This document shows positions 4,240 to 18,046 of a stretch of 29,040 nt of DNA, piece after piece. The stretch comes from a virus. Lineage: Duplodnaviria > Caudoviricetes. The notes under the pieces are model-generated. The model saw only the letters and a program-made list of their open reading frames with translations. It ran no database searches and was not told the DNA's origin. Every line of letters begins with the position of its first letter. The stretch's first letter is position 1. Where the stretch lies: positions 1 to 29,040 of IMG/VR virus record IMGVR_UViG_3300037423_000534; one strand, written 5' to 3'. Both the position numbers and the translations under genes were made by a program.

Positions 4240-5069
4240 GCTGCCTCCCGGTTTTCGTAGTTGCCCTGCACGACCTTGGCGAAGTTCTCGGCGTTCACCA
4301 GCCACCCAAGGTCGCAGTTCGTCCACCGACCGTCACGGCCGGTCAGGAAGTCGGACTTGGCGACGTAGGCGAAGAAGCGGTCGAACCACGCGAGCCCCTC
4401 GGCCTCGTTCGTCGCGTAGCGCGCCCCGGTCGTCTTGGTTTTCGTCAGCAGCCACTTCCAACGGGAAGCAAGGTTCTTCTCCCTTTGCCCTGCCCACAGC
4501 TCCGGCTTGGGCTGCGGCAGCATTGGCAAGTGCTTGGCGTAGAGGTCGAGGATCGCCCTGTGCGGGCAGGTCGGCGGCTTGGCCGTCGACAAGTCCGTAG
4601 GACTACTGGTATTCCTCTTCTCTTCTCTACTCTCCTCTCCTCTATCGTGACTTTGCGTGACATCGCGTGACTCGTCGGGATTGAGAGGGACAAGCAGCTC
4701 GTCACGCACTTGCACGGACTCCAGTTCGCGCTGCTTGCGCTTGCGATCCGTGGCGCTGTCGTCCTCGCGCTTGGGCTGGCGCTTGTCCCAGGCTGCGATG
4801 CGGCCATCACCGATCAGCCCGCGCCCCGTCATGGCGTCGAGGATGCGGCCGGCAGTGCCGTCATCCGCGCCGAGCATGAAGTCCAGCGTCTCGAAATCAA
4901 TCGGCCCGATGGTCCCGCGCTGCTCGTTCTCGCTCGCCTTCTCCAAGACAAACGCCCAGACGAGGATCACGTCGCCCAACCGAACGCCGGCCTTCTTGGC
5001 GACCAGTTGGAACTTGGGGTCTGTCACGCTGCCGTGGTGCCAGCGGAACCAATCGATGCCTCCGGCCAT
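4236..5069 (-). CDS. phage replication initiator (O-like)
   Basis: WFRWHHGSVTDPKF N-terminus, central RKRKQRE/SRDVTQSH iteron-coded segment, C-terminal DLGWLVNAENFAKVVQGNY. Lies upstream of the helicase. Confidence 0.85.
   Translation of the reverse strand: MAGGIDWFRWHHGSVTDPKFQLVAKKAGVRLGDVILVWAFVLEKASENEQRGTIGPIDFETLDFMLGADDGTAGRILDAMTGRGLIGDGRIAAWDKRQPKREDDSATDRKRKQRELESVQVRDELLVPLNPDESRDVTQSHDRGEESREEKRNTSSPTDLSTAKPPTCPHRAILDLYAKHLPMLPQPKPELWAGQREKNLASRWKWLLTKTKTTGARYATNEAEGLAWFDRFFAYVAKSDFLTGRDGRWTNCDLGWLVNAENFAKVVQGNYENREAA
4611..4706. promoter_or_regulatory. probable replication origin: CGTGAC iterons plus a strand-biased purine/pyrimidine tract
   Basis: CGTGAC at 4646, 4656 and 4666 (10-bp period), an inverted GTCACG near 4701, and an adjacent C/T-rich tract at 4611-4645, all inside the initiator gene as in lambdoid origins. 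Confidence 0.7.
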
Positions 5070-5551
5070 TACCCCTCCGTGACCGTGCGTGACACCGCGT
5101 GACACTCAGCACCAGCAGATGCCTCGATAGCCGCGTCGATCTCCGCGATGCGAGCGGCCACCAGATGCGGCCGGCGAGCACGTTCGTTCAGCGCTGCAAC
5201 CTCGGCGCTCCACAGGCGATCCCGCCAGCCCTTGGCGGCAAAGCAGCCCTCCTGCACCCATCCGGCGTTGGCGGCTTCCATCCGATAGGCGACCTGGCGG
5301 ATGTAGCGGGCCAACTCCTCGTCGCGCATGTCGGCCAGCTCGCCAGCGGTGGCGATGTGCAGGCACCCTCGCAGCGTGCTGGCGGCACCTTCGTGCTCCT
5401 GAGTGCTCGGCGCTACGGCACCAACGTGCTCTTTACAGTCCGTTGCGTGCTCGGCCGGATGACGCGGAGTTGCGAATCCGGCAGGATTAGCCACTGTGGG
5501 GGACTTCGTTCCCACAGCGGTCAGGGATGACGAGAGAGGGCAGGCGGTCAT
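5069..5551 (-). CDS. hypothetical protein (true start uncertain; 5' part overlaps hairpins)
   Basis: 160-aa ORF between the CII-like and O-like genes. Its stop overlaps the O start. Confidence 0.45.
   Translation of the reverse strand: MTACPLSSSLTAVGTKSPTVANPAGFATPRHPAEHATDCKEHVGAVAPSTQEHEGAASTLRGCLHIATAGELADMRDEELARYIRQVAYRMEAANAGWVQEGCFAAKGWRDRLWSAEVAALNERARRPHLVAARIAEIDAAIEASAGAECHAVSRTVTEG
5078..5103. repeat. second CGTGAC x3 iteron cluster just upstream of the initiator start codon
   Basis: CGTGAC at 5078, 5088 and 5098, with the same 10-bp period as the origin cluster. Confidence 0.75.
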
Positions 5552-5980
5552 TTACGCGACCTTCCTGGCGAACAGCGACTCGACGTATTCCAGACGCCTC
5601 TCCAGCTCGATAGCCCGCTCACGCGCAAGTTGCAACAGGCGCTCGGCCTCCGACTGGATCTGCACCAGCGTGCAACCCACGCGGTAGGCGATCCACTCCG
5701 GATAGATCCGGTTGTTCACGACCGTGCAGAACGACTCGATCAGGTCGGTCTGCAGCGTTGCCTCGCCCTTCTTGATGCGCGAGAAGTACCCCGCATCCAG
5801 GCTGAGCGCGCCGTAAATCTCCTTGTCCTCCAGCCCCGAAGACTGGCAGGCCAGCGCGAAAGCAGCGGCCCCGCTCTTCTGCCGGCGCACCACCTCTATG
5901 GGCATGTCGTTGGGCTCGGCACGACGCGAGAGCGCCAGTTCGGCCTGTCCGTCAAGCCGGGACGATTCTTTTGACGCCAC
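5552..5980 (-). CDS. CII-like transcriptional regulator
   Basis: HTH LEDKEIYGALSLDAGYFSRIKKG, C-terminal coiled coil, and position between cro and the replication genes. Confidence 0.7.
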   Translation of the reverse strand: MASKESSRLDGQAELALSRRAEPNDMPIEVVRRQKSGAAAFALACQSSGLEDKEIYGALSLDAGYFSRIKKGEATLQTDLIESFCTVVNNRIYPEWIAYRVGCTLVQIQSEAERLLQLARERAIELERRLEYVESLFARKVA

Positions 5981-6007
5981 TTGACTAACCCCTTTGGGCA
6001 AAAAAAA

Positions 6008-7069
6008 TCAGACTTCGCATCCATGCGAAGCACGAACCGCCACTCCACTCGGAGTCACGCTGTAGCCGTTGGCCTGGATGTAGGCCATGCGCGCTGCAAC
6101 CGCCTCTTCCTCGGTCGCGTAACGCCCGAGGCTTTTCTTGCCGACCTTCGCCATGTACGGGCGGCTGAGACCCGGATACAGGTAGAACACGCCGCGCACC
6201 GCCTTTTGCTTGCCCTTCCACTTTTGAATGGCCTCGCGTCCGTTCTCCGTGGCGAGCTGGACATGCACGTTTCCAATCAGGTAGCCGCCGCTGTCCTTGA
6301 TGCGAGACATGACGTACTTCCCCTTCCCGCGTCCGCGCTGCTCCAGCTTTCCGCTGGTGAGCCACACATCCAGCCATTGCGCAAAGTTCAGGCCCCACTC
6401 GATTCCGCGATTGGCGGCGGCATTCTCTTGGCTTCGGTACGCGGCGACCAAGCCGGCGGCACGCCACTTGTTCATTTCCTGGTGGGGCAAGCCGTACCGA
6501 ATGAGGCTTTTCACATCGAGCCTTGTCTGTCGGGCCTCTTGCTTGGACCTTGCCGTCTTGCTTATTCCGCCGTCCTGCCGGGCAACGCCTTGCCGCTCCA
6601 CCAGCTGACGCACACGCTCGCGAGTGAGATTGAAGGTCTGGCCGATCTTCTCCAGCGTGAGCCCCTGCCGGTACATCGTCGCCATGCGCTCGTTACGAGA
6701 GTCGAACTCGCCGGCCGGGCCGCCCCGGCCCTTTACGAGATCAATCCGATGGCGCTTGGCGCTCTGGGACACGCCGGCAACGGAGACTTCAAGACGGCGG
6801 GCAATCTCGGAGGCGGACAAGCCTTGGGCCGCCAACAGGCGCAGATCTGCCGGGTTGATCTTTCCGAAAGTCTTGACAGGCCCGAAGCTCCAATCGGAGC
6901 GCTCTTTATTGGCCGGTGGGCGCCCACGCGAGGAGCGCACGACTTCGATGCCAAGGATCTGCACTGTCCGGCGAACTCGGGAGTAGGGACGGCCGAGTCG
7001 GCGGGCAATTTCGCCAAGGCACAGGCCCTGCGCCGCCAATGCCTGCAGCTCTTCGGAGTTGATGAACAT
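6008..7069 (-). CDS. multi-HTH / sigma70-region-4-like / HNH-like / AP2 protein (probable homing-endonuclease derivative)
   Basis: Two repeated HTH units (LAAQGL..EIARRL), RQGLTLEKIGQTFNLTRERVRQL, RGIEWGLNFAQW...MSRIKDSGGYLIGNV...EN, and AP2-like GVFY...LGRYATEEEAVAAR. Confidence 0.75.
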   Translation of the reverse strand: MFINSEELQALAAQGLCLGEIARRLGRPYSRVRRTVQILGIEVVRSSRGRPPANKERSDWSFGPVKTFGKINPADLRLLAAQGLSASEIARRLEVSVAGVSQSAKRHRIDLVKGRGGPAGEFDSRNERMATMYRQGLTLEKIGQTFNLTRERVRQLVERQGVARQDGGISKTARSKQEARQTRLDVKSLIRYGLPHQEMNKWRAAGLVAAYRSQENAAANRGIEWGLNFAQWLDVWLTSGKLEQRGRGKGKYVMSRIKDSGGYLIGNVHVQLATENGREAIQKWKGKQKAVRGVFYLYPGLSRPYMAKVGKKSLGRYATEEEAVAARMAYIQANGYSVTPSGVAVRASHGCEV

Positions 7070-7370: not shown

Positions 7371-7856
7371 ATGCGTAACAAAGCCAGCCCGCGCAAGGTA
7401 CTCAGCGAAAACCTCCGCGCCCTGATGTCGGTGCGGCCCGATCTGGGCACGATCAAGAAGGTGGCCGAGGCGTCTGGCTCGGCATTGAGCAATGGCAAGG
7501 TGGGGCGGATCTACGCGGCCAGCCACACCACCGACATCGACACGCTCCAGGACTTGGCGAGCGTTTTCAAATTGGAACCCTGGCAACTACTAGTAGAAGG
7601 CCTTAACCCCAATGCGCTACCGCGCTTGGCCGACGCTTCTGTCCTAAATCAAATACTCGATGCGGTACGCAGTTCGGCCGCAACAGTTCACGAGAATGTC
7701 AGCATGACGACCCCTACTCATCCATCGGAGAATGGGCATCCACTGGAGAAGGCAACGACTCTTGCCTCGGTGGTTAGCAGAACGAAGGGGAAAAAGAAGC
7801 GTGAAAGTCGTAAGTCTGGCCCGGCACAAAAACCGCGAACTGGTCGCGGTGCTTAA
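7371..7856 (+). CDS. CI-like HTH repressor (no S24 peptidase domain seen)
   Basis: VLSENLRALM...IKKVAEASG..LSNGKVGRI...IDTLQDLASVFKLEPWQLL: XRE-type HTH, divergent from cro. Confidence 0.8.
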   Translation: MRNKASPRKVLSENLRALMSVRPDLGTIKKVAEASGSALSNGKVGRIYAASHTTDIDTLQDLASVFKLEPWQLLVEGLNPNALPRLADASVLNQILDAVRSSAATVHENVSMTTPTHPSENGHPLEKATTLASVVSRTKGKKKRESRKSGPAQKPRTGRGA

Positions 7857-8797: not shown

Positions 8798-9009
8798 TGT
8801 CGGTAATCCTCGATGCTGCCGCCCTGCTGGACCCCCAGCGCCGAGCCGACCTGTATGCCACGGACCGTGCTTTGGGTTACGTGCCGGCATACGACCCGGA
8901 CCTTCTTTGCCTGCGCTGCGGGCTGGACGGACACACCTCCGACGAGTGCCGCAGGAGCATTCCGGCTTGGCCTGTCACTGCTTTTGAGATGGGGGTGCAG
9001 CGTGGCTGA
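8797..9009 (+). CDS. small protein with CCHC zinc knuckle
   Basis: CLRCGLDGHTSDEC = CX2CX4HX4C. Start is coupled to the previous stop. Confidence 0.65.
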   Translation: MSVILDAAALLDPQRRADLYATDRALGYVPAYDPDLLCLRCGLDGHTSDECRRSIPAWPVTAFEMGVQRG

Positions 9010-9277
9010 ACAACTCACCGTGCCGATCCACGTCGGCGGCGGCGCCATGATGTTCATCGAGAACACGAAGGCCGATCCTCGCATCGAGTGGTTGCTGCGC
9101 TATAGCCGCGACCTGAATGACCCGCAGGCCGGGCGCTTCTCGGCCGCTGCGGTGGTCGAGAGCTACACGTATCTACTGTCTCGCAACATCAGCACAGCCG
9201 AAGCCATCAGGCGATTGCGCCTGCTGCGCACGGCGGCGCACGCACACGGCTTTGGCGTGGAGGGCAAGGCGAAATGA
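9002..9277 (+). CDS. hypothetical protein
   Basis: GTG start overlapping the previous gene. Ends ...GFGV-EGKAK. Confidence 0.65.
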   Translation: MAEQLTVPIHVGGGAMMFIENTKADPRIEWLLRYSRDLNDPQAGRFSAAAVVESYTYLLSRNISTAEAIRRLRLLRTAAHAHGFGVEGKAK

Positions 9278-9546
9278 GGATGCTCACCGACGACGAATTG
9301 GCGGAATGCTCGCGCCGGTACTACGAGTCCAACATCGACCCGGAGTTGGTGCAGCGCAAGTTCATGGAAGTGAACGGGCTGAGCCTGCTGGAGTGGCGCG
9401 ATGCCCCTGACGTTGGCACTGACTCGATGGGCAAGCTGATCGCCGCGCTTGAGTTCGTGATCCGCCACAGCGACAGCCTCACTCCGTCGGACATCCAGCG
9501 GATGCAGGCGATCCTGGCCGAAGTGACGGGAGACAAGCAATGCTGA
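9274..9546 (+). CDS. hypothetical protein (paralogue of 12928-13158)
   Basis: MRMLTDDE...RKFMEVNGL. ATGA coupling. Confidence 0.65.
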   Translation: MRMLTDDELAECSRRYYESNIDPELVQRKFMEVNGLSLLEWRDAPDVGTDSMGKLIAALEFVIRHSDSLTPSDIQRMQAILAEVTGDKQC

Positions 9547-10949: not shown

Positions 10950-11450
10950 ATGGCATCCACAGCGCTTACTGCTGAAGAAGTCCGAGCACTCCTTCGGTAC
11001 GACCCTGAGACTGGAGCCCTCTACTGGCGAACCACAGGTCGGGGGCGGCGGCTTGACTGCAAGGCCGGCAGTCTCGACAGGCATGGCTACCTGCAAACCC
11101 GAGTTAATGGGCGGATCTACTTCAACCATCGTCTCGTCTGGCTGTATGTGCGCGGCGCGTGGCCCGAGCAGGTCATCGACCACATCGACGGCGACGTGCG
11201 AAACAACAGGATCGAGAACCTGCGCGACGTGAGCCGCAAGGCCAACCAAGAAAACCAGCGCAGCGCGGCTTCCAGCAACTTCACGACCGGCCTGCTAGGG
11301 GCGTCCCTGCACAAGCCCACCGGCAAGTACGTGGCGGCAATCCAGACGGCAGGAAAGACGCAGTATCTGGGTCTGTACGACACGCCGGAGGAAGCGCACG
11401 CCGCCTACATCTCCGCGAAGCGGGAACTTCACCAAGGATCAACGATATGA
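10950..11450 (+). CDS. HNH homing endonuclease with AP2-like C-terminus
   Basis: YDPETG, HRLVW, IDHIDGDVRNNRIENLR, YLGLYDTPEEAHAAY. Confidence 0.92.
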   Translation: MASTALTAEEVRALLRYDPETGALYWRTTGRGRRLDCKAGSLDRHGYLQTRVNGRIYFNHRLVWLYVRGAWPEQVIDHIDGDVRNNRIENLRDVSRKANQENQRSAASSNFTTGLLGASLHKPTGKYVAAIQTAGKTQYLGLYDTPEEAHAAYISAKRELHQGSTI

Positions 11451-12205
11451 ATGAACTTGTCGTCACACAAGCGGCCAAGCTCGGCGTGCTCTTCGGCATG
11501 GAGGGCGACGGGCGGGAGTTGCTGCAAGTCCTGAAGGCAACCGCCTTTAAGGGACAGGTGAGCGATGCGCAGATGTCCGCGCTCATGGTCGTCGCCAATC
11601 AGTACAAGCTCAACCCGTTCACTCGGGAACTGTTTGCCTTTCCCGACAAGAATAACGGGATCGTCCCGGTCGTCGGCGTGGACGGCTGGAGCCGCATCAT
11701 CAATGGCCATCCGCAGTTCGACGGCATGGACTTTGAGCAGGACGCGGAAAGCTGCACTTGCATCATTCACCGCAAGGACCGCAGCCACCCGGTTCGGGTG
11801 ACGGAGTACATGGCCGAGTGCAAGAGGCCGAACGTCGGCCCGTGGCAGTCCCACCCGCGCCGGATGCTGCGCCACAAGGCCATGATCCAGTGCGCCCGAC
11901 TCGCGTTCGGCTACGCCGGCATCTACGACCAAGACGAGGCCGAGCGGATTGCAGAAGTGAAGACCGTTGACCCGGCAACCGGCGAGATTCTGACCGCGCC
12001 CACCTTCGATGTGGACGGGGCCCTTGCGGAGGTCAAAGCCTGCGCGAGCAAGGACGCACTGGAGTCCGCATGGAAGAAGCATCTTGCCTTGGCTCAGGCC
12101 GCCAAGGATAAGACGGGCTACGCGGCACTCAAGGAAGCCGTGCTGGCCCGCCGGGAGGAACTCGACAAGCCGGAGGTTCTGGAGGCCGAGGAGGTTCCGC
12201 AATGA
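11447..12205 (+). CDS. bet: Red-beta (Bet) single-strand annealing recombinase
   Basis: LKATAFKGQVSDAQM, ANQYKLNPFTRELFAFPDK, VVGVDGWSRIIN.HPQFDG, PWQSHPRRMLRHKAMIQCARLAFG. Confidence 0.95.
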   Translation: MNELVVTQAAKLGVLFGMEGDGRELLQVLKATAFKGQVSDAQMSALMVVANQYKLNPFTRELFAFPDKNNGIVPVVGVDGWSRIINGHPQFDGMDFEQDAESCTCIIHRKDRSHPVRVTEYMAECKRPNVGPWQSHPRRMLRHKAMIQCARLAFGYAGIYDQDEAERIAEVKTVDPATGEILTAPTFDVDGALAEVKACASKDALESAWKKHLALAQAAKDKTGYAALKEAVLARREELDKPEVLEAEEVPQ

Positions 12206-12831
12206 AGATCATCGAATGCCCCCAAGGCTCGCCCGAATGGTTCGCCGCCAGGTGCGGAGTGCCGAGCGCCAGCCGCTTTGCCGCCATCATGGCGACGATC
12301 AAGACGGGCGAAGCCGCAGAGCGCAGGAACTATCGGGCCGACCTCGTTGTGGAGCGCCTGACGGGCAAGCCGCTGGAGGGCTTCACTTCCGCCGCGATGA
12401 AGCAAGGCATCGAGCGCGAGCCGTTCGCCCGCATGGGATACGAGGCCCACACCGGAAACATCGTGCAGGAGGTCGGCTTCTGCCTGCATGACGAAATCGC
12501 CGCCGGCAGCAGCCCCGATGGGCTGATCGGAGATGAGGGCGGGCTGGAAATCAAGTGCCCGGAGCGATCCGCCCATCTGCGCTACTTGCAGCAGGACGCA
12601 GAGCCGCCGGAATACACCTGGCAGATTCAGGGTGGGATGTGGGTGACCGGCCGCGCCTGGTGGGACTTCGTTTCCTACAACCCGGACTTCCCGGAGCACC
12701 TCCAACTGATCGTCCGGCGCATCAAGCGCAACGATGCGGCAATCGCAAAGCTGGAGACTGAGGTAAAGCGGTTTTTGGTGGAGGTGGATGCCGAAGTGGA
12801 TCGCCTTCGCAACATGCGGGAGGCCGCGTAA
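12202..12831 (+). CDS. exo: lambda-exonuclease / YqaJ-family 5'-3' exonuclease
   Basis: QGSPEWFAAR.G..SAS, G.E.EP.AR..YE, SPDGL, LEIKCP, QIQGGMWV, WDFVSY. Confidence 0.93.
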   Translation: MKIIECPQGSPEWFAARCGVPSASRFAAIMATIKTGEAAERRNYRADLVVERLTGKPLEGFTSAAMKQGIEREPFARMGYEAHTGNIVQEVGFCLHDEIAAGSSPDGLIGDEGGLEIKCPERSAHLRYLQQDAEPPEYTWQIQGGMWVTGRAWWDFVSYNPDFPEHLQLIVRRIKRNDAAIAKLETEVKRFLVEVDAEVDRLRNMREAA

Positions 12832-12935
12832 TGCCCTGCACACCCCCCTGCCCCCACTGCGGCCCGCTGTACGCCGCTGCGCTGGAGGCCGTGTCTCACC
12901 TGACCACCGATGGCGTGGGAGGCACCGATGCGTGA
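12831..12935 (+). CDS. mini-ORF (34 aa), first unit of the GV-cassette array
   Basis: TAATG coupling to exo. MPCTPPCPHCG...TDGV-GGTDA. Stop overlaps the next gene. Confidence 0.45.
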   Translation: MPCTPPCPHCGPLYAAALEAVSHLTTDGVGGTDA

Positions 12936-13158
12936 CCTGACGGAAGACGAAGTGCTGGAAGCCATTCGGACCGCCAACCTCGGCGGCAACACGATCAGGC
13001 TGACGTTCGACAGCGGCCCCTACGAGGTCACGCGGACGACGCGAGTTGCCGACCTCCTGGCTCAAGCCATCGTGCGCAAGTTCTGCGAGGTCAACGGCCT
13101 CCCTGAGCCGGCACACAACCGTGGCGTGGACTCGGTTGATGGAGGGAAAGCGAAATGA
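12928..13158 (+). CDS. hypothetical protein (paralogue of 9274-9546)
   Basis: GGAGG RBS. MRDLTEDE...RKFCEVNGL...RGV-DSVDGGKAK. Confidence 0.65.
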   Translation: MRDLTEDEVLEAIRTANLGGNTIRLTFDSGPYEVTRTTRVADLLAQAIVRKFCEVNGLPEPAHNRGVDSVDGGKAK

Positions 13159-13346
13159 CCTGCGTCGTGCTGACGAAGAACCCGAACGGCGGCGGCATCG
13201 TCGCAATCACCGAAGGCGACGAGGGCAACATCGCGCGCTGGGACAACTCGTCCGACGCGCTCACCGACGCCCGCGAACACCCCCTCATCAAGGCGTGGGG
13301 CGGCTGGGTCGTGGACCTCGACTACCTGGAGATCAGCGAAGTATGA
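13155..13346 (+). CDS. hypothetical protein (63 aa)
   Basis: ATGA coupling and RBS. Confidence 0.6.
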   Translation: MTCVVLTKNPNGGGIVAITEGDEGNIARWDNSSDALTDAREHPLIKAWGGWVVDLDYLEISEV

Positions 13347-13404
13347 GCGCACACGACTGTGGCGTGCAGGGCAGTGCAACCGATCAACCGAAGGGAGGCG
13401 CGTG

Positions 13405-13965
13405 ATGGCGCTCCTAATTCACGACCCGCGCGATGTAGAGCAGGTCGTCCCCAAGCGCACTCCGATCACCGAAAGCTACTGGCAGCGCGGCTGCAACGAT
13501 GCGAAGGCCGGACGGCCGGAAAAGTGGCCGTCGAGGGGCGGCGGCTTTGACCGTCGCAATGTGGGCTACGCGAACGGCTATGCCTTCGGATCGGGCGTTG
13601 CAGGATCAAGGACGAGCAACTACCGCGTATCCACTGACCTGCGCGGGCACACCGTCGTTGAGGCGCACATGGCCTGCATCAACGGCCTGAGCGCGTGGGT
13701 GATGGTGGCCGACCTGGGCAAGGAACACCCGGAGGACCAGATGTTCGGCGGGTTTGACCGTGAGGCCATCGGCCAAAAGATCGTTGCCGCGCTTGGCGAG
13801 CGGGGCGTGGACGAATCGCGGCTAGACGCCTACTGCAAAGCATGGGAACGGTCTTTCAGCGCCGCAAACCCCCATTGCACCGTGTCCATGGACCCGGAAG
13901 ACCGCGAGCACATCCTCGCCGGTCTTCGCGCCGCCCTTGGCGTGCCGGAGGTGCCCCGTGGCTGA
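13405..13965 (+). CDS. hypothetical protein apparently built from three GV-delimited modules
   Basis: GGAGG RBS. Modules end ...FGSGV, ...GERGV and ...AALGV. Confidence 0.6.
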   Translation: MALLIHDPRDVEQVVPKRTPITESYWQRGCNDAKAGRPEKWPSRGGGFDRRNVGYANGYAFGSGVAGSRTSNYRVSTDLRGHTVVEAHMACINGLSAWVMVADLGKEHPEDQMFGGFDREAIGQKIVAALGERGVDESRLDAYCKAWERSFSAANPHCTVSMDPEDREHILAGLRAALGVPEVPRG

Positions 13966-14344
13966 GTCCAAACCGCTCAACGGCATCGCCGCCAACTGGT
14001 TCCACGGCGAGGGCGCCATCGCGCAGTGCTTCTACTGCCGCCGCTACTCGCTCGATCCAAAGACGCTCGGCGAGGACCGCTACCAGCCCGTGTGCGAATG
14101 CGGGAAGAAGCACGGCTGGTCCGGCAGCTTCAGGAAACCCGGTCCCAACGCAAAGTGGTCCGGCAAAGCGCACGCTGGTGTGGCAATGGGCGACTGCGGC
14201 AACGCCGAATGCAACTGGCGCGGCCCGATCAGCGAGTGCAGCTACATCGGAACCGTCGGCCCCTGCTGCCCGCAGTGCCGGGAGATTGTCGAGCCCGACG
14301 CCCCTGGCGTGATAGGACTTGGTGGAGCGAAACAGCATGAGTAA
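13958..14344 (+). CDS. Cys-rich protein made of two GV-delimited Zn-ribbon-like modules
   Basis: CFYC..CECG module ending HAGV, then CGNAEC.W.G...CPQC module ending APGV. Confidence 0.6.
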   Translation: MAESKPLNGIAANWFHGEGAIAQCFYCRRYSLDPKTLGEDRYQPVCECGKKHGWSGSFRKPGPNAKWSGKAHAGVAMGDCGNAECNWRGPISECSYIGTVGPCCPQCREIVEPDAPGVIGLGGAKQHE

Positions 14345-14696
14345 CGAAACTGTCACGGCGTCCGCATGCTGGTCTTGCGCGGACGAAGCGGATGGCAAAG
14401 CGCGCTGCGAACGCTGGTGCTGCCTGCCGGGGAAGTGCTTGAGCACCTACCCCGAGTCAACGTGGCCGAGATTCGTGGAACTGAGGTTTCCACGGGACAG
14501 CACCCTTCAGCACCATCGTGATCGCGAGGGGATGGAAAAGCTGCTCAAGGTCAACGGCGTCCAGTTCCTCACAAGCAATGACGGCACGGTGTCTATCGAG
14601 CGGTCGGACCTTCCGAGGTTGATGCGTGGCCTAGAGGGAATTCTGCGAGCACTCGCGCCCCACGTTCCGCCTGACGCGAAGGAGCGCGAACAATGA
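14337..14696 (+). CDS. hypothetical protein with N-terminal Cys cluster
   Basis: GGAG RBS, CWSC...CERWCC...C. Confidence 0.6.
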   Translation: MSNETVTASACWSCADEADGKARCERWCCLPGKCLSTYPESTWPRFVELRFPRDSTLQHHRDREGMEKLLKVNGVQFLTSNDGTVSIERSDLPRLMRGLEGILRALAPHVPPDAKEREQ

Positions 14697-14881
14697 TTCC
14701 CACCATCGAAGACATCCTCGCTGGCCTCGCCAGCGGCCAATACACGGTCGAGCAGGCGCGACGGTGGATCGCCCGCCACATTCAGATGGCCGAGGAAAGG
14801 GTAGCCACTGCTGGCGTGCAGGGGGTTGGCGCCAACACGGTTCCCCATCACACGCCCATGGTCGGCAAGGACGAGCAATGA
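14693..14881 (+). CDS. hypothetical protein (62 aa)
   Basis: MIPTIEDILAGLASGQYTVEQARRWIARH...AGV. ATGA coupling. Confidence 0.6.
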   Translation: MIPTIEDILAGLASGQYTVEQARRWIARHIQMAEERVATAGVQGVGANTVPHHTPMVGKDEQ

Positions 14882-15270
14882 CCGAAGAACTGGAGCTTCG
14901 TGCTCGTGCAGCTACGCCGGGGCCGTGGAAGTGTGAGCAGAACACCGTCTACGTGCTCCACGGCGAGCCGGCACGCAACCGATTCAGCGCGCTAGTGCAG
15001 GCAGGGCGCCGGGACGACGCCGGGCCGGATGAGCTTGCCGCGAACGCCGCCTACATCGCAGCCTGCTCCCCGGATCGGGTGCTGCGCCTGCTGGAGGTGG
15101 TGAAACAGGCGAAGGAACAGTTGCGCCTGCGGGACGAGCGGGTGCACATCGCCACAACGGCGGGCAGCGCAGCGACTCGCACCGAGGAATTGATGAGCAA
15201 CGGCGACGCGACCGAGAAAGCCTGGGCCGCCCTGCGCGCCGCACTGGCAGGGCTGGAGGAGGGGCAATGA
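14878..15270 (+). CDS. Ead/Ea22-like early protein
   Basis: AATPGPW...ANAAYIAACSPDRVLRLL: the ead/ea22 N-terminal motif. Confidence 0.7.
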   Translation: MTEELELRARAATPGPWKCEQNTVYVLHGEPARNRFSALVQAGRRDDAGPDELAANAAYIAACSPDRVLRLLEVVKQAKEQLRLRDERVHIATTAGSAATRTEELMSNGDATEKAWAALRAALAGLEEGQ

Positions 15271-15494: not shown

Positions 15495-15913
15495 GCGAAG
15501 AACTGAAGCGCCTGTGGGATCAGGTCGAACACGACCTCGGCTTCAACGACCACAACATGCGGCGCGACAGGCCGTACAACGGCCAGGCGCATACCAACAC
15601 CGGCACCCGTGGCGCTACTGAGGTGCGAGGCATCACCTTCCGCGACCTGCGCGACTGCTTCATCCGGGCGGTGCTGCTGTCCACCGGAGCCCAGACCATC
15701 GCCGGGGTGAACATGCGCCCTCGCTACGAGGAGGCGGGCAAAGGCGAAGCCGCCGCCTTGTGCGAGAACGACCTGTATGGCTTCAACCTGGATCGGCTGG
15801 ACCCGATGGCGATTTGCCAGAACCTGAGCTGCGAAGTCGAGCGGCTCATGGGCATCTTCCCGAACGTGCCCGAGCTGGGCCGCCGCTCCGGGGATGGGGG
15901 AGGACAGGGGTGA
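15491..15913 (+). CDS. conserved hypothetical protein
   Basis: RPYNGQAHT..G.RGATEV.G.TFRDLRDCF...DPMAICQNL.CEVE.LMGIFPN. ATGA coupling. Confidence 0.7.
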   Translation: MSEELKRLWDQVEHDLGFNDHNMRRDRPYNGQAHTNTGTRGATEVRGITFRDLRDCFIRAVLLSTGAQTIAGVNMRPRYEEAGKGEAAALCENDLYGFNLDRLDPMAICQNLSCEVERLMGIFPNVPELGRRSGDGGGQG

Positions 15914-16119
15914 GCTTTCTCGCCAAGGAAGACCTTCGCCAGCTCACCGGGGCCGCCAGACAGCCCGGACAGGTCGCGTGGCTGCGCGCCGAGGGCATCC
16001 CCTTCAAGGTCAGCCGAAGGGATGAGCTGCTGGTGACTTGGAAGCACGTTCACGCATGGATCGAGGGCCGGCACGCCCCGCTATCCTCTGTCGCTCCTGA
16101 CCTCTCCGGCGTGAGTTGA
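15910..16119 (+). CDS. excisionase-like protein (DUF4224 type)
   Basis: FLAKEDLRQLTG....GQVAWLRAEGIPF...PDLS, immediately upstream of and coupled to the integrase. Confidence 0.8.
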   Translation: MSFLAKEDLRQLTGAARQPGQVAWLRAEGIPFKVSRRDELLVTWKHVHAWIEGRHAPLSSVAPDLSGVS

Positions 16120-17150
16120 TGCCCAAGAAGACCAAGCACCCGCGATTGCGAGCCCTCAAGCGCACGAACAAGGCCGGCAAGGTCACGGTGTACTACGCCT
16201 ACGACATGCGCCCCGAGGGCAAACCAGACATCCAGCTTGGCAAAGATTGGGATGTCGCCATCGTTCGGTGGGACGAGTTGTACAACAAGCGCCCCCGCAT
16301 CAAGGGGACGATTGAGGAAGCCTTCCAGCTTTTCGAGCAGGAGAAGCTTCCAGACTACACCGGGGCCACCAAGACCGGGCACATCAAGGGCATCCGCAAG
16401 CTGCGTCCGGCCTTCGGACCGGCAACCTGGGATACGGTGAAGCTGCCGCACCTGATCGAGTTCCTGCGCAAGCGCAAGGGCAAGGTGCAGGCAAACCGGA
16501 ACATCACCACCTTCCGCGTGGTGTGGAACTTCGCCCGCATGCGAGGACTGACGGAACTGCCGTGGCCCGCCGAGGGCATGAAGGGTTCCGGCTGGCTGAA
16601 CAAGGAAAGCCCGCGCAAGGTCACGGTCACGGACGCGATGTTCGACGCCGTGTACGAACAGGCCGACCAGCTCCTGCGCGATGCGATGGACCTCGCCAGC
16701 GCCACGGCCATGCGGATCACGGACGTTCGCACCGTTCCCCTGCCCCACGGCGACATCCTGCATCTGGAGGCCCACAAGACGGGCAAGGAAGCCGCCTTCG
16801 ATGTGAGGCTGTCCGAGGTGCTGCCGGACCTGATTCGCCGCCGCAGAGCCAACAGGAACGCCGAGCACCTGATGCTGCTGGCCGGGCCGTTCAGAAAGCC
16901 GGTGAGCTACATGCAACTGCGGGGCCGCTTCCGCTTGGCGAGAACGGCAGCAGCGAAGAAGGCGCGGGAAGCCGGCGACGAGCAACTGGCGCAGGCCGTG
17001 GAAAGCATGATCCTGCGGGATGTTCGCAAGTACGCTGCCAACAAAGCGGGGAGTTTGGATGAGGCTGCAAACCTATTGCAGCACTCCAGCAAGTCGCTCA
17101 CGCGAACCGCCTACCGCACCGAGGTAGACAAGATTAAACCGGTGCGCTGA
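16119..17150 (+). CDS. int: tyrosine integrase
   Basis: N-terminal arm-binding-like region (YYAYD...LG). Catalytic R (TAMRITDV), K (KTG), RDVR in place of HxxR, H (LLQHSS) and Y (RTAYR). Confidence 0.9.
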   Translation: MPKKTKHPRLRALKRTNKAGKVTVYYAYDMRPEGKPDIQLGKDWDVAIVRWDELYNKRPRIKGTIEEAFQLFEQEKLPDYTGATKTGHIKGIRKLRPAFGPATWDTVKLPHLIEFLRKRKGKVQANRNITTFRVVWNFARMRGLTELPWPAEGMKGSGWLNKESPRKVTVTDAMFDAVYEQADQLLRDAMDLASATAMRITDVRTVPLPHGDILHLEAHKTGKEAAFDVRLSEVLPDLIRRRRANRNAEHLMLLAGPFRKPVSYMQLRGRFRLARTAAAKKAREAGDEQLAQAVESMILRDVRKYAANKAGSLDEAANLLQHSSKSLTRTAYRTEVDKIKPVR

Positions 17151-17252: not shown

Positions 17253-17582
17253 ATGGCTGATGCGAATCATACCCGCGCCGAACTTGACGAACTGCGCTGG
17301 ATCGTCAACGGCTTCCTTGAATGGCACGAAGGCGCACCCTGTCCTAATGGACTGATCGAGCGCGCCCGGGCGGCTGTGCCGAATCTGGACGCGGTGACGG
17401 AGGAGGCTCACCGGCCAGAGATCATCGACGCTGGCTTTCTCTACGAGCGGCCGGAGAACGTGGCGAAGCAGATCGCAACACCCACTGTGTTGCTCGGCTT
17501 CCCGCCGAACGACTACGAGGCAAGAGACGCCTTTGTGCGTGCGTGGCGTGCCGCCTATAGCGCGGAGGATCAACGTGGCTGA
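17253..17582 (+). CDS. hypothetical protein downstream of the integrase
   Basis: GAGAGG RBS and ATG at 17253. Confidence 0.6.
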   Translation: MADANHTRAELDELRWIVNGFLEWHEGAPCPNGLIERARAAVPNLDAVTEEAHRPEIIDAGFLYERPENVAKQIATPTVLLGFPPNDYEARDAFVRAWRAAYSAEDQRG

Positions 17583-17910
17583 ACCGAAGGTTCTTGGGCG
17601 CATCGAGCCGCAGCCGCCGAGAGGCATTAAGTACATGCTCGGGAATCAGTCGTGGCTTCCGGCGCATGAACGCGACCTGATCACGCTTCACTGCGAGGAG
17701 TGGGGCAACCTCGGGCCGCTGGAACTGAATCGCGAAATCAAGCCGAACAAGGCGGGGTTCCGCGTCCGCACGACCACGATCCTAGCCCCCGCTGGAGCCC
17801 ACGGCTTCACTGAAATCGATGGCGTGTACTACTGGACCGACACCAGCGTATGGGACCTTTGCGGAAACGATGCGGAAACGGATGCGGAAATGAAAGAAAA
17901 AAGCCGTTGA
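17575..17910 (+). CDS. hypothetical protein whose 3' end overlaps the att arm repeats
   Basis: GGAGG RBS and GTG overlapping the previous stop. Confidence 0.55.
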   Translation: MAEPKVLGRIEPQPPRGIKYMLGNQSWLPAHERDLITLHCEEWGNLGPLELNREIKPNKAGFRVRTTTILAPAGAHGFTEIDGVYYWTDTSVWDLCGNDAETDAEMKEKSR

Positions 17911-18046
17911 AAATCAACGGCCAACCTCAAGGCCAAGGGGATGGAGACACCCATCCCGGATTGAGCGCTGGTGCGGGTTTGCGGGCTGTTTTTTCCGCAT
18001 CGAGCGGCTAGATCGGCCCAGTGGAGACGGGCTATTGCGGAAACGG
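17860..18046. other. putative attP with integrase arm-type repeats
   Basis: TGCGGAAA direct at 17860, 17871, 17883 and 18036, and inverted at 17992. Located where early and late transcription converge, downstream of int. Confidence 0.65.
17897..17922 (-). terminator. hairpin terminator (U-tract on minus strand; possibly bidirectional)
   Basis: AAAAAA-GCCGTTGA-AAA-TCAACGGC. Confidence 0.6.

Follow-up and report, generated by a model that had tools for sequence, protein, structure and literature searches.

The 29,040-nt window analysed here (positions 1 to 29,040 of the IMG/VR record IMGVR_UViG_3300037423_000534, Caudoviricetes) is part of a temperate lambdoid soil phage. In the accessory-gene region between exo and xis, it carries an array of small open reading frames (ORFs) and fused domains joined at the heptamer TGGCGTG, which is read in frame as Gly-Val (GV). 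We found that this motif marks actual exchange points in close relatives. The stretch is present in three metagenome runs (X1-X3) from three studies; X1 is possibly the window's own source, so that two runs are independent. No RNA data set was listed as containing it, a result without bearing on expression. In the relatives' contigs the flanks of the array were kept and its interior was replaced, and most of the joints listed re-entered the window's sequence at the start of a motif copy. The original prediction, made from the sequence alone, had proposed that unrelated units are gained, lost or replaced at the motif, and this was supported both by the breakpoints of the relatives and by protein homologues that split at GV. 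From left to right, the array contains the following features.

12831..12935, plus strand: 34-amino-acid (aa) ORF forming the conserved left flank, ending in GV-GGTDA; common to alternative arrays in runs X1-X3
12911..12917, plus strand: joint 1, TGGCGTG; end of an X2 unitig and exit of an X2 record; an X3 contig is fused just before 12911
12928..13158, plus strand: 76-aa ORF with tail GV-DSVDGGKAK; holds a second, longer linker, AIVRKFCEVNG, at about 13064-13112
13122..13128, plus strand: joint 2, TGGCGTG; its tail of 21 nt (13122-13142) is also found among other neighbours, and three of the seven listed joints re-enter at 13122
13155..13346, plus strand: 63-aa ORF, no family match
13360..13366, plus strand: joint 3, TGGCGTG, within a 20-aa mini-ORF (13343-13405); identified by sequence only, no breakpoint seen
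13405..13965, plus strand: chimeric ORF of 186 aa, made up of three units (aa 1-64, 65-134 and 135-180)
13593..13599, plus strand: variant joint GGGCGTT, separating units 1 and 2 of the 186-aa ORF; homologues split here, and in homologue P0018 the GV is immediately preceded by an indel
13794..13809, plus strand: two variant joints, TGGCGAG at 13794 and GGGCGTG at 13803, where unit 2 meets unit 3; in homologues P0018, P0021 and P0086, unit 2 ends with ALGV at the position of 13794
13938..13944, plus strand: joint TGGCGTG, tail GV-PEVPRG; homologue P0033 ends unit 3 in GV with a different tail
13958..14344, plus strand: 128-aa chimeric ORF of two Cys-rich units, the first to 14176, the second 14176-14305
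14176..14182, plus strand: variant joint TGGTGTG; homologues of the first unit end, and those of the second begin, at GV (counts below); the related locus L022 has TGGCGTG at this position
14305..14311, plus strand: joint TGGCGTG, tail GV-IGLGGAKQHE; in homologues P0013 and P0014 the unit ends with GV and in P0015 with GM, followed by another tail in each case
14337..14696, plus strand: 119-aa ORF containing CCACGTT at 14660, which is unsupported as a joint
14693..14881, plus strand: 62-aa ORF ending in GV-QGVGANTVPHHTPMVGKDEQ
14812..14818, plus strand: last joint, TGGCGTG, at which the conserved right flank begins; records in three runs resume here

Counts of joints refer to the seven listed. 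Five of them re-entered at the first base of the motif (±1 nt), three at 13122 and one each at 14812 and 14811, against about 1% of entries expected there by position alone (6 sites × 3 positions in 2,051). The remaining two re-entered at 14827, on a TGGCGCC 15 nt downstream of the last joint, and at 13074, in the AIVRKFCEVNG linker. Three further pieces start exactly at 14812 following unlike DNA; resumption after unlike DNA was seen in five records from the three runs, four times at 14812 and once at 14811. In X2, 12917 is the end of a unitig with a depth of 41, and a record of 367 nt picks up at that position and reaches 14812 after about 300 unlike bases. X3 contains one contig in which a different gene is fused directly before 12911, as well as a 1,621-nt record (depth 18.5) that bridges 12921 to 14811 and matches the bet-exo contig in depth (depth 21; 22 differences in 935 nt). 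In relatives, heterologous modules are thus bordered by a short conserved sequence, as is characteristic of linker shuffling. The shorter side of all seven joints measured 20-30 nt, and such joints can stem from other organisms.

The exits lay at 12903, 12917, 12921, 12922, 12930 (twice) and 13142, that is, once at the last base of the motif, five times 4-14 nt past it and once 8 nt before it. With these five late exits and the two re-entries elsewhere, the idea of one fixed crossover, also put forward originally, was not supported. Exchanges were seen also at the start codon at 12930 and in the AIVRKFCEVNG linker, and the tails are reused: 12911-12930 and 13122-13142 sit between other neighbours in the relatives' contigs. 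Backward joints, indicative of circles or tandem copies, were absent among the joints listed, and contigs cannot show rare circles. One joint, from 13275 to 14943, was discarded as likely to come from another organism (20-nt side, away from the motif). Diverged or short matches at 12854-12887, 13023-13061, 13064-13112, 13154-13217, 13187, 13262-13297, 13777, 13903-13942 and 13988 were set aside as homologues or noise.

A second TGGCG (14827-14833), the re-entry point of one X2 path, lies 15 nt after the last joint, and several tails carry TGRYG at the same spacing. The AIVRKFCEVNG linker (13064-13112) is common to the non-GV phages L001 and L002 and to other contigs. The N-terminal part of the 76-aa ORF that holds it is found in prophage L103 too; an Atlas search with this ORF gave no usable match.

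The protein homologues of the chimeric ORFs were split into units as well. Fifteen non-self homologues of the 128-aa ORF covered either the first unit only (11) or the second only (4). Five of the 11 end in GV at the 14176 column and six do not, and three of the four second-unit homologues begin at GV. The 129-bp unit lies between two GVs in P0013 and P0014, with different neighbours, between GV and GM in P0015, and is found without GV in P0016. For the 186-aa ORF, 67 phmmer matches formed three groups of 25, 17 and 25; two whole units were covered by P0018 alone, which diverges at GV. P0021 and P0086 are identical up to residue 128 (GV) and unrelated beyond it. GV was present within the last 25 residues of 22/83 homologues, compared with 105/915 background ORFs, and a T-ending-codon test on the residue before GV gave 1/22 versus 12% (p 0.22). 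In cultured phages, searches returned a match to unit B (the 13958-14176 unit) in Burkholderia phage KL4 only, plus distant Ea22 and Bet matches.

All ten motif positions given originally, and their spacings, were reproduced. The Gly-Val reading was correct in frame 0 for the six exact copies and for the variants at 13593, 13803 and 14176. The CCACGTT at 14660 did not stand as a variant joint, because the lone homologue found aligns straight through it (ALAPHVPP versus ALAPNIPP). The tails with a stop and the next start, and the start-less units of 210, 135 and 129 bp, were as described. Enrichment persisted under codon-preserving shuffling: the six exact copies of the array compare with 0.38 expected when codon order is shuffled within genes (0/20,000 shuffles reach 6) and with 0.74 when proteins are fixed and synonymous codons are resampled (1/20,000 reaches 6). 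Over the whole window the excess was mild (14 copies versus 8.2 expected; 4/100 shuffles reach 14), and some 7-mer attains six copies in 7.8% of 3,000 shuffles; the case therefore rests on position and breakpoints rather than on the count. Among the GV dipeptides of the array, 6/11 are written T-GGC-GTG, compared with 3.8% of 1,749 GV in the background (2/10 in the other left-arm genes), which indicates a constraint on the DNA and not on the peptide.

Two in-frame copies had been missed, TGGCGAG at 13794 (one mismatch) and an exact copy outside the array:

9253..9259, plus strand: outlying in-frame TGGCGTG upstream of bet; its tail, GV-EGKAK, resembles the joint-2 tail

Judging by sequence likeness, the part of the early operon that lies upstream of bet may undergo the same shuffling as the exo-xis array. 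The tail at 9253-9277 looks like the 13122 tail minus 12 nt. The ORF at 9274-9546 has a start and internal motifs (MLTDDEL..., RKFMEVNG) similar to those of the ORF with the AIVRKFCEVNG linker.

The array belongs to a leftward early operon made up of HNH, bet, exo, small ORFs, an Ead/Ea22-like gene, xis and int; small ORFs in this place, between exo and xis-int, are typical of the lambdoid exo-xis accessory region. Rap, DnaB, O-like and methylase genes occupy the left side of the window, and lysis and tail genes the right side. The genes and site that matter for the mechanism are as follows.

11447..12205, plus strand: bet, Red-beta-type single-strand annealing protein (TIGR01913 above cut-off, PF03837, phrog_252)
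12202..12831, plus strand: exo, lambda-exonuclease/YqaJ family (PF09588, phrog_149)
14878..15270, plus strand: Ead/Ea22-like gene (PF13935, E 1e-4, 23 bits, below the 27-bit curated cut-off)
15910..16116, plus strand: excisionase-like gene (DUF4224; PF13986, phrog_1266)
16119..17150, plus strand: tyrosine integrase (phrog_1, E 4e-11)
17860..18046, no strand assigned: likely attP, with TGCGGAAAC-type arm repeats around the inverted core GGGATGG-N6-CCATCCC

The repeats at 17860-18046 are likely to represent attP, to judge from their arrangement. Five TGCGGAAA-type repeats, one of them inverted, flank the GGGATGG-N6-CCATCCC core, and two ORFs (17253-17910) lie between int and this region.

We compared the joints with known types of recombination site; negative results for the window cover its 29 kb, about 14 kb of the 42.8-kb source contig lying outside. 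Thirteen DNA sites (ten in the window and three in L022) share only the heptamer and a G at +10 (11/13), with weaker biases for C at -6 and -3 and for G at +16. No dyad, inverted binding element or extended consensus was found at these 13 sites. The array had been said to be free of attC hairpins, and the 13 sites indeed showed no consistent fold: 73/78 folding z values were at -2.0 or above (mostly within ±2) and none was consistent across sites, whereas three attC from L062, used as a control, folded at z -1.8 to -3.3. GTTRRRY/RYYYAAC boxes, which mark attC, were absent at the joints. No IntI was present beside the array in the window, the window's Int having no NCBIfam match, compared with 427 bits on TIGR02249 for the IntI of L066; no second recombinase was detected among the 48 window ORFs scanned against PHROGs. 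The arms and core of a tyrosine-integrase att site were found only at 17860-18046 and not at the joints, and TGGCGTG is absent from the likely attP region. The sites also depart from the PeSL type in lying inside ORFs and in being unstructured (no promoter scan was run). By the tests run, the array is neither an integron, nor an att site, nor a PeSL. In five genomes of the candidate host family, TGGCGTG occurs at 182-284 per Mb versus 212-236 expected from GC content, though the phage's true host may differ.

The distribution of the array among relatives did not support the suggestion that Bet/Exo or Int is the catalyst. Phages with a 70-78% identical Exo (L001-L005) have no array after exo; L022 has three in-frame sites before xis-int and no Bet or YqaJ match (this record is estimated to be 85% complete); and the likely attP lacks the motif. 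The co-occurrence with a lambda-type Exo expected of a lambda-exonuclease pause site was thus not found in L001-L005 and L022. In the candidate host family, no GV array was seen at 10 exo loci (10/12 matches) or at 40 xis loci (40/43 matches), several of the latter with 48-51% identical integrases; many of these exo and xis loci are perhaps not comparable prophage regions. Exact copies per 5 kb numbered 0 in 23 of the 40 xis loci, 1 in 12, 2 in 4 and 4 in one, L103, whose copies are mostly not junction-like GV. Relatives of the L022 integrase also showed no GV array.

Unit B was found at 20 viral, 5 genome and 6 metagenome loci, and ends in the motif only in L022 among the 28 loci inspected (L016, L026 and L031 left out). 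Scans of the collections with unit C, the 186-aa ORF, unit 2 and the Ea22-like ORF gave no viral loci, and tail-pattern scans returned 7 and 1 loci, all chance matches as judged by context. Most loci join the same cargo via Ala/Pro/Gln-rich linkers, and L062 and L066 carry the 13958-14176 unit as an attC-flanked cassette in true attC arrays. We are inclined to regard the GV motif as a minimal, lineage-specific linker, most relatives using other linkers. The prophage-like exo-xis regions of L066 (1-1789) and L062 (1900-5045) are attC arrays read through in frame, with ORFs that end in PNV and begin ...EGLG; the integron integrase of L066 (TIGR02249, 427 bits) is located between array and xis-int, in the same orientation. 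Another junction dialect is seen in L103 (G346:C2) at about 4700-6200, where an RTQPA linker is repeated within a chimeric ORF (CGCACCCA occurs five times in 5 kb).

The explanation that we favour, on balance, is that units are joined by microhomology and exchanged within their 20-nt tails, with selection for in-frame, domain-sparing products. It starts from the observed breakpoints and modularity; the enzymes and the selection are what we infer. Resected ends of co-infecting phages or prophages would anneal at the common heptamer, yielding rare new joints between unrelated units. The motif would also open a small set of reusable 20-30-nt tails carrying a ribosome-binding site, a stop and a start, and the homology of these tails, being near what Red-beta needs, might allow Bet/Exo or host enzymes to spread existing joints. 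Motif joints would preserve the frame, translational coupling and whole domains, and we propose that selection retains them for this reason; every incoming unit with the motif would further raise its usefulness, leading to one linker 'dialect' per gene pool. By analogy, the heptamer comes near the microhomology of about 9 nt reported for lambda illegitimate recombination (PMC3375238; this and the other published sources are cited from excerpts), and the minimal pairing segment of Red-beta is 23-27 bp (PMC3945230).

Several findings support joining by short homology. Breakpoints fall on the motif, and two joints involve the heptamer only (the exit at 12917 and the divergence of P0021 and P0086 after GV). 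The tails are reused, with five of the seven exits shortly past the motif. The sites show neither a hairpin nor an extended consensus, the presence of the motif is independent of Exo, Bet and Int, and the same domains occur with other linkers. Among exact matches of at least 7 nt, motif pairs accounted for 14/391 between the window and L022 and for 15/206 within the window; when both sides had to be in frame and at most 75 nt from a gene end, they accounted for 6/16 and 15/22, respectively. Selection could therefore supply much of the focus on the motif.

Other findings weigh against this explanation. Before filtering, the motif represents only 4-7% of the available microhomologies, so that the model leans heavily on the presumed selection, and the gene-end filter is itself partly shaped by where the sites sit. 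Seven bases are far under the 23-27 bp pairing segment of Red-beta (PMC3945230), and the entries are sharper than a homology gradient predicts. Among homologues, unit 1 of the 186-aa ORF meets GV at varying distances, which implies that the site was acquired repeatedly and independently. The generality of the motif is limited by the unit-3 homologues, 24/25 of which have no boundary GV, many using an AEQPAQQ-type linker. Finally, a true site-specific system moves this cargo in the corresponding region of other phages.

We considered the possibility of an undescribed system, in which an enzyme of the phage or the host would cut, pause or exchange strands at the unstructured, asymmetric TGGCGTG, as a hairpin-free analogue of an integron. 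This is conceivable, though doubtful. If true, a sequence-directed enzyme would assemble genes and protein domains in frame, thereby building chimeric proteins.

Sequence-directed processing of DNA ends, which would make the motif a hotspot, appears unlikely. Ends would form at TGGCGTG, through pausing of a lambda-type exonuclease at GGCG or a Chi-like stop of the host AddAB/RecBCD, and then anneal to another copy. What makes a nuclease-directed step attractive is the pausing of lambda Exo immediately ahead of GGCGA (PMC7496540), whose first four bases, GGCG, also occur in the motif. The site is moreover short, asymmetric, single-oriented and without dyad, resembles E. coli Chi (GCTGGTGG), is entered sharply at its first base, and belongs to an array that starts 80 nt after exo. 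Yet L001-L005 have no array despite their similar Exo, L022 has sites with no YqaJ or Bet match, and the motif density is near the GC expectation in the five candidate-family genomes, with the proviso on the true host given above. Furthermore, the excerpt of PMC8022716 states that no reliable Chi motif was found in Betaproteobacteria.

Still less probable is a site-specific recombinase (phage Int, host Xer or an unrecognised enzyme) that uses TGGCGTG as its overlap, as the integron integrase does with attC. Seven bases suit the overlap of a tyrosine recombinase, and all sites are direct repeats on one strand. Other phages have the 13958-14176 unit in attC arrays at the corresponding locus, one of them with IntI encoded before xis-int, which indicates that such machinery is favoured here, and there is room for further genes in the part of the source contig beyond the window. 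Against this, neither inverted binding elements nor a hairpin were found at the 13 sites, the likely attP lacks the motif and differs in its arms and core, and the PHROGs scan of the 48 window ORFs revealed no second recombinase. Degenerate sites are tolerated, exchanges occur also at the 12930 start codon and the AIVRKFCEVNG linker, and backward joints are lacking among those listed, with the caveat that contigs lose rare forms. That the heptamer was never a crossover and is the fossil of a tandemly duplicated ancestral tail, exchange now proceeding via longer tail or flank homology, is improbable: tail families (ALPDG four times, PGTPNDQQ and KGL twice each), the shared end of the 9253 and 13122 tails and the exits, mostly within tails, would fit, but near-identical partners diverge exactly after the motif (X2 exit at 12917; P0021/P0086), and the nucleotide purity of the array GVs (6/11 as T-GGC-GTG versus 3.8% of 1,749) is not accounted for.

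The statement that no named system matches was right for the heptamer itself, as nothing describing a TGGCGTG joint was seen among the papers listed in a literature search, which covered titles and abstract openings and no subscription papers. It was not right for linker-mediated exchange, a long-standing idea, for which a linker (boundary) sequence model was reportedly described by Clark et al. in 2001. In the linker (boundary) model of modular phage evolution of Botstein and Campbell (summarised in PMC2839356), unrelated modules are bordered by short conserved sequences that steer exchanges to tolerated places, as they do here; the present core differs in being only 7 nt long, intragenic and frame-keeping, and in fusing domains as well as whole genes. 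The PeSL cassettes of the T4-type phages RB49 and phi1 (PMC2839356) likewise consist of repeated motifs that mediate insertion, deletion and replacement of ORFans in a hyperplastic region, the catalyst being left open; PeSLs are, however, intergenic promoter-plus-stem-loop elements that form mini-circles, whereas the joints here are intragenic and unstructured, and no circles were seen. The same source cites T4 deletions that end at a GGGC motif.

The lambdoid exo-xis (Ea22/Ead) mosaics (PMC7093339) are alike in position, in their small ORFs and Ead/Ea22-like gene, and in C-terminal domains that are swapped but have a short terminal motif in common; the excerpt of that paper describes no crossover sequence, whereas here a 7-nt in-frame joint is seen in the DNA of co-occurring relatives. 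Phage-borne integrons have already been published (PMC9892861) and share with the array head-to-tail cassettes in one orientation, and even the 13958-14176 unit (L062 and L066), but not the GTTRRRY/RYYYAAC boxes, hairpin or IntI. Relaxed recombination by Red-beta (PMC3945230) is compatible with a phage that encodes Bet/Exo and with 20-30-nt tails and conserved flanks, but heptamer-only joints are well under its 23-27 bp pairing segment. What is new here is a minimal, frame-keeping heptamer with natural alleles that break on it; linker-driven mosaicism itself is known.

Whether phage mosaic joints originate from random joining followed by selection or from targeted sites is still debated, according to the excerpt of PMC3945230. 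This locus offers a defined 7-nt joint, several natural alleles that occur together in the same samples and sister phages in which a true integron moves the same cargo, so that the question can be tested directly. An enzyme, if one is involved, would provide a new tool for frame-preserving domain shuffling; if none is, a heptamer and selection can behave like a cassette system.

A few other features of the window were recorded. Two HNH-type or HNH/AP2 endonuclease genes are present (6008-7069, minus strand, and 10950-11450, plus strand), the one with several helix-turn-helix repeats lying in the cro-side operon and the other directly before bet. The presumed repressor (7371-7856, plus strand), only 161 aa long, lacks a peptidase domain and matched nothing in Pfam, PHROG or NCBIfam. 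The gene junction CGTGGCTGA (...RG stop / GTG start VAE) occurs three times in the window, at 9002, 13958 and 17575, and GTGGCTGA is found in L022 too.

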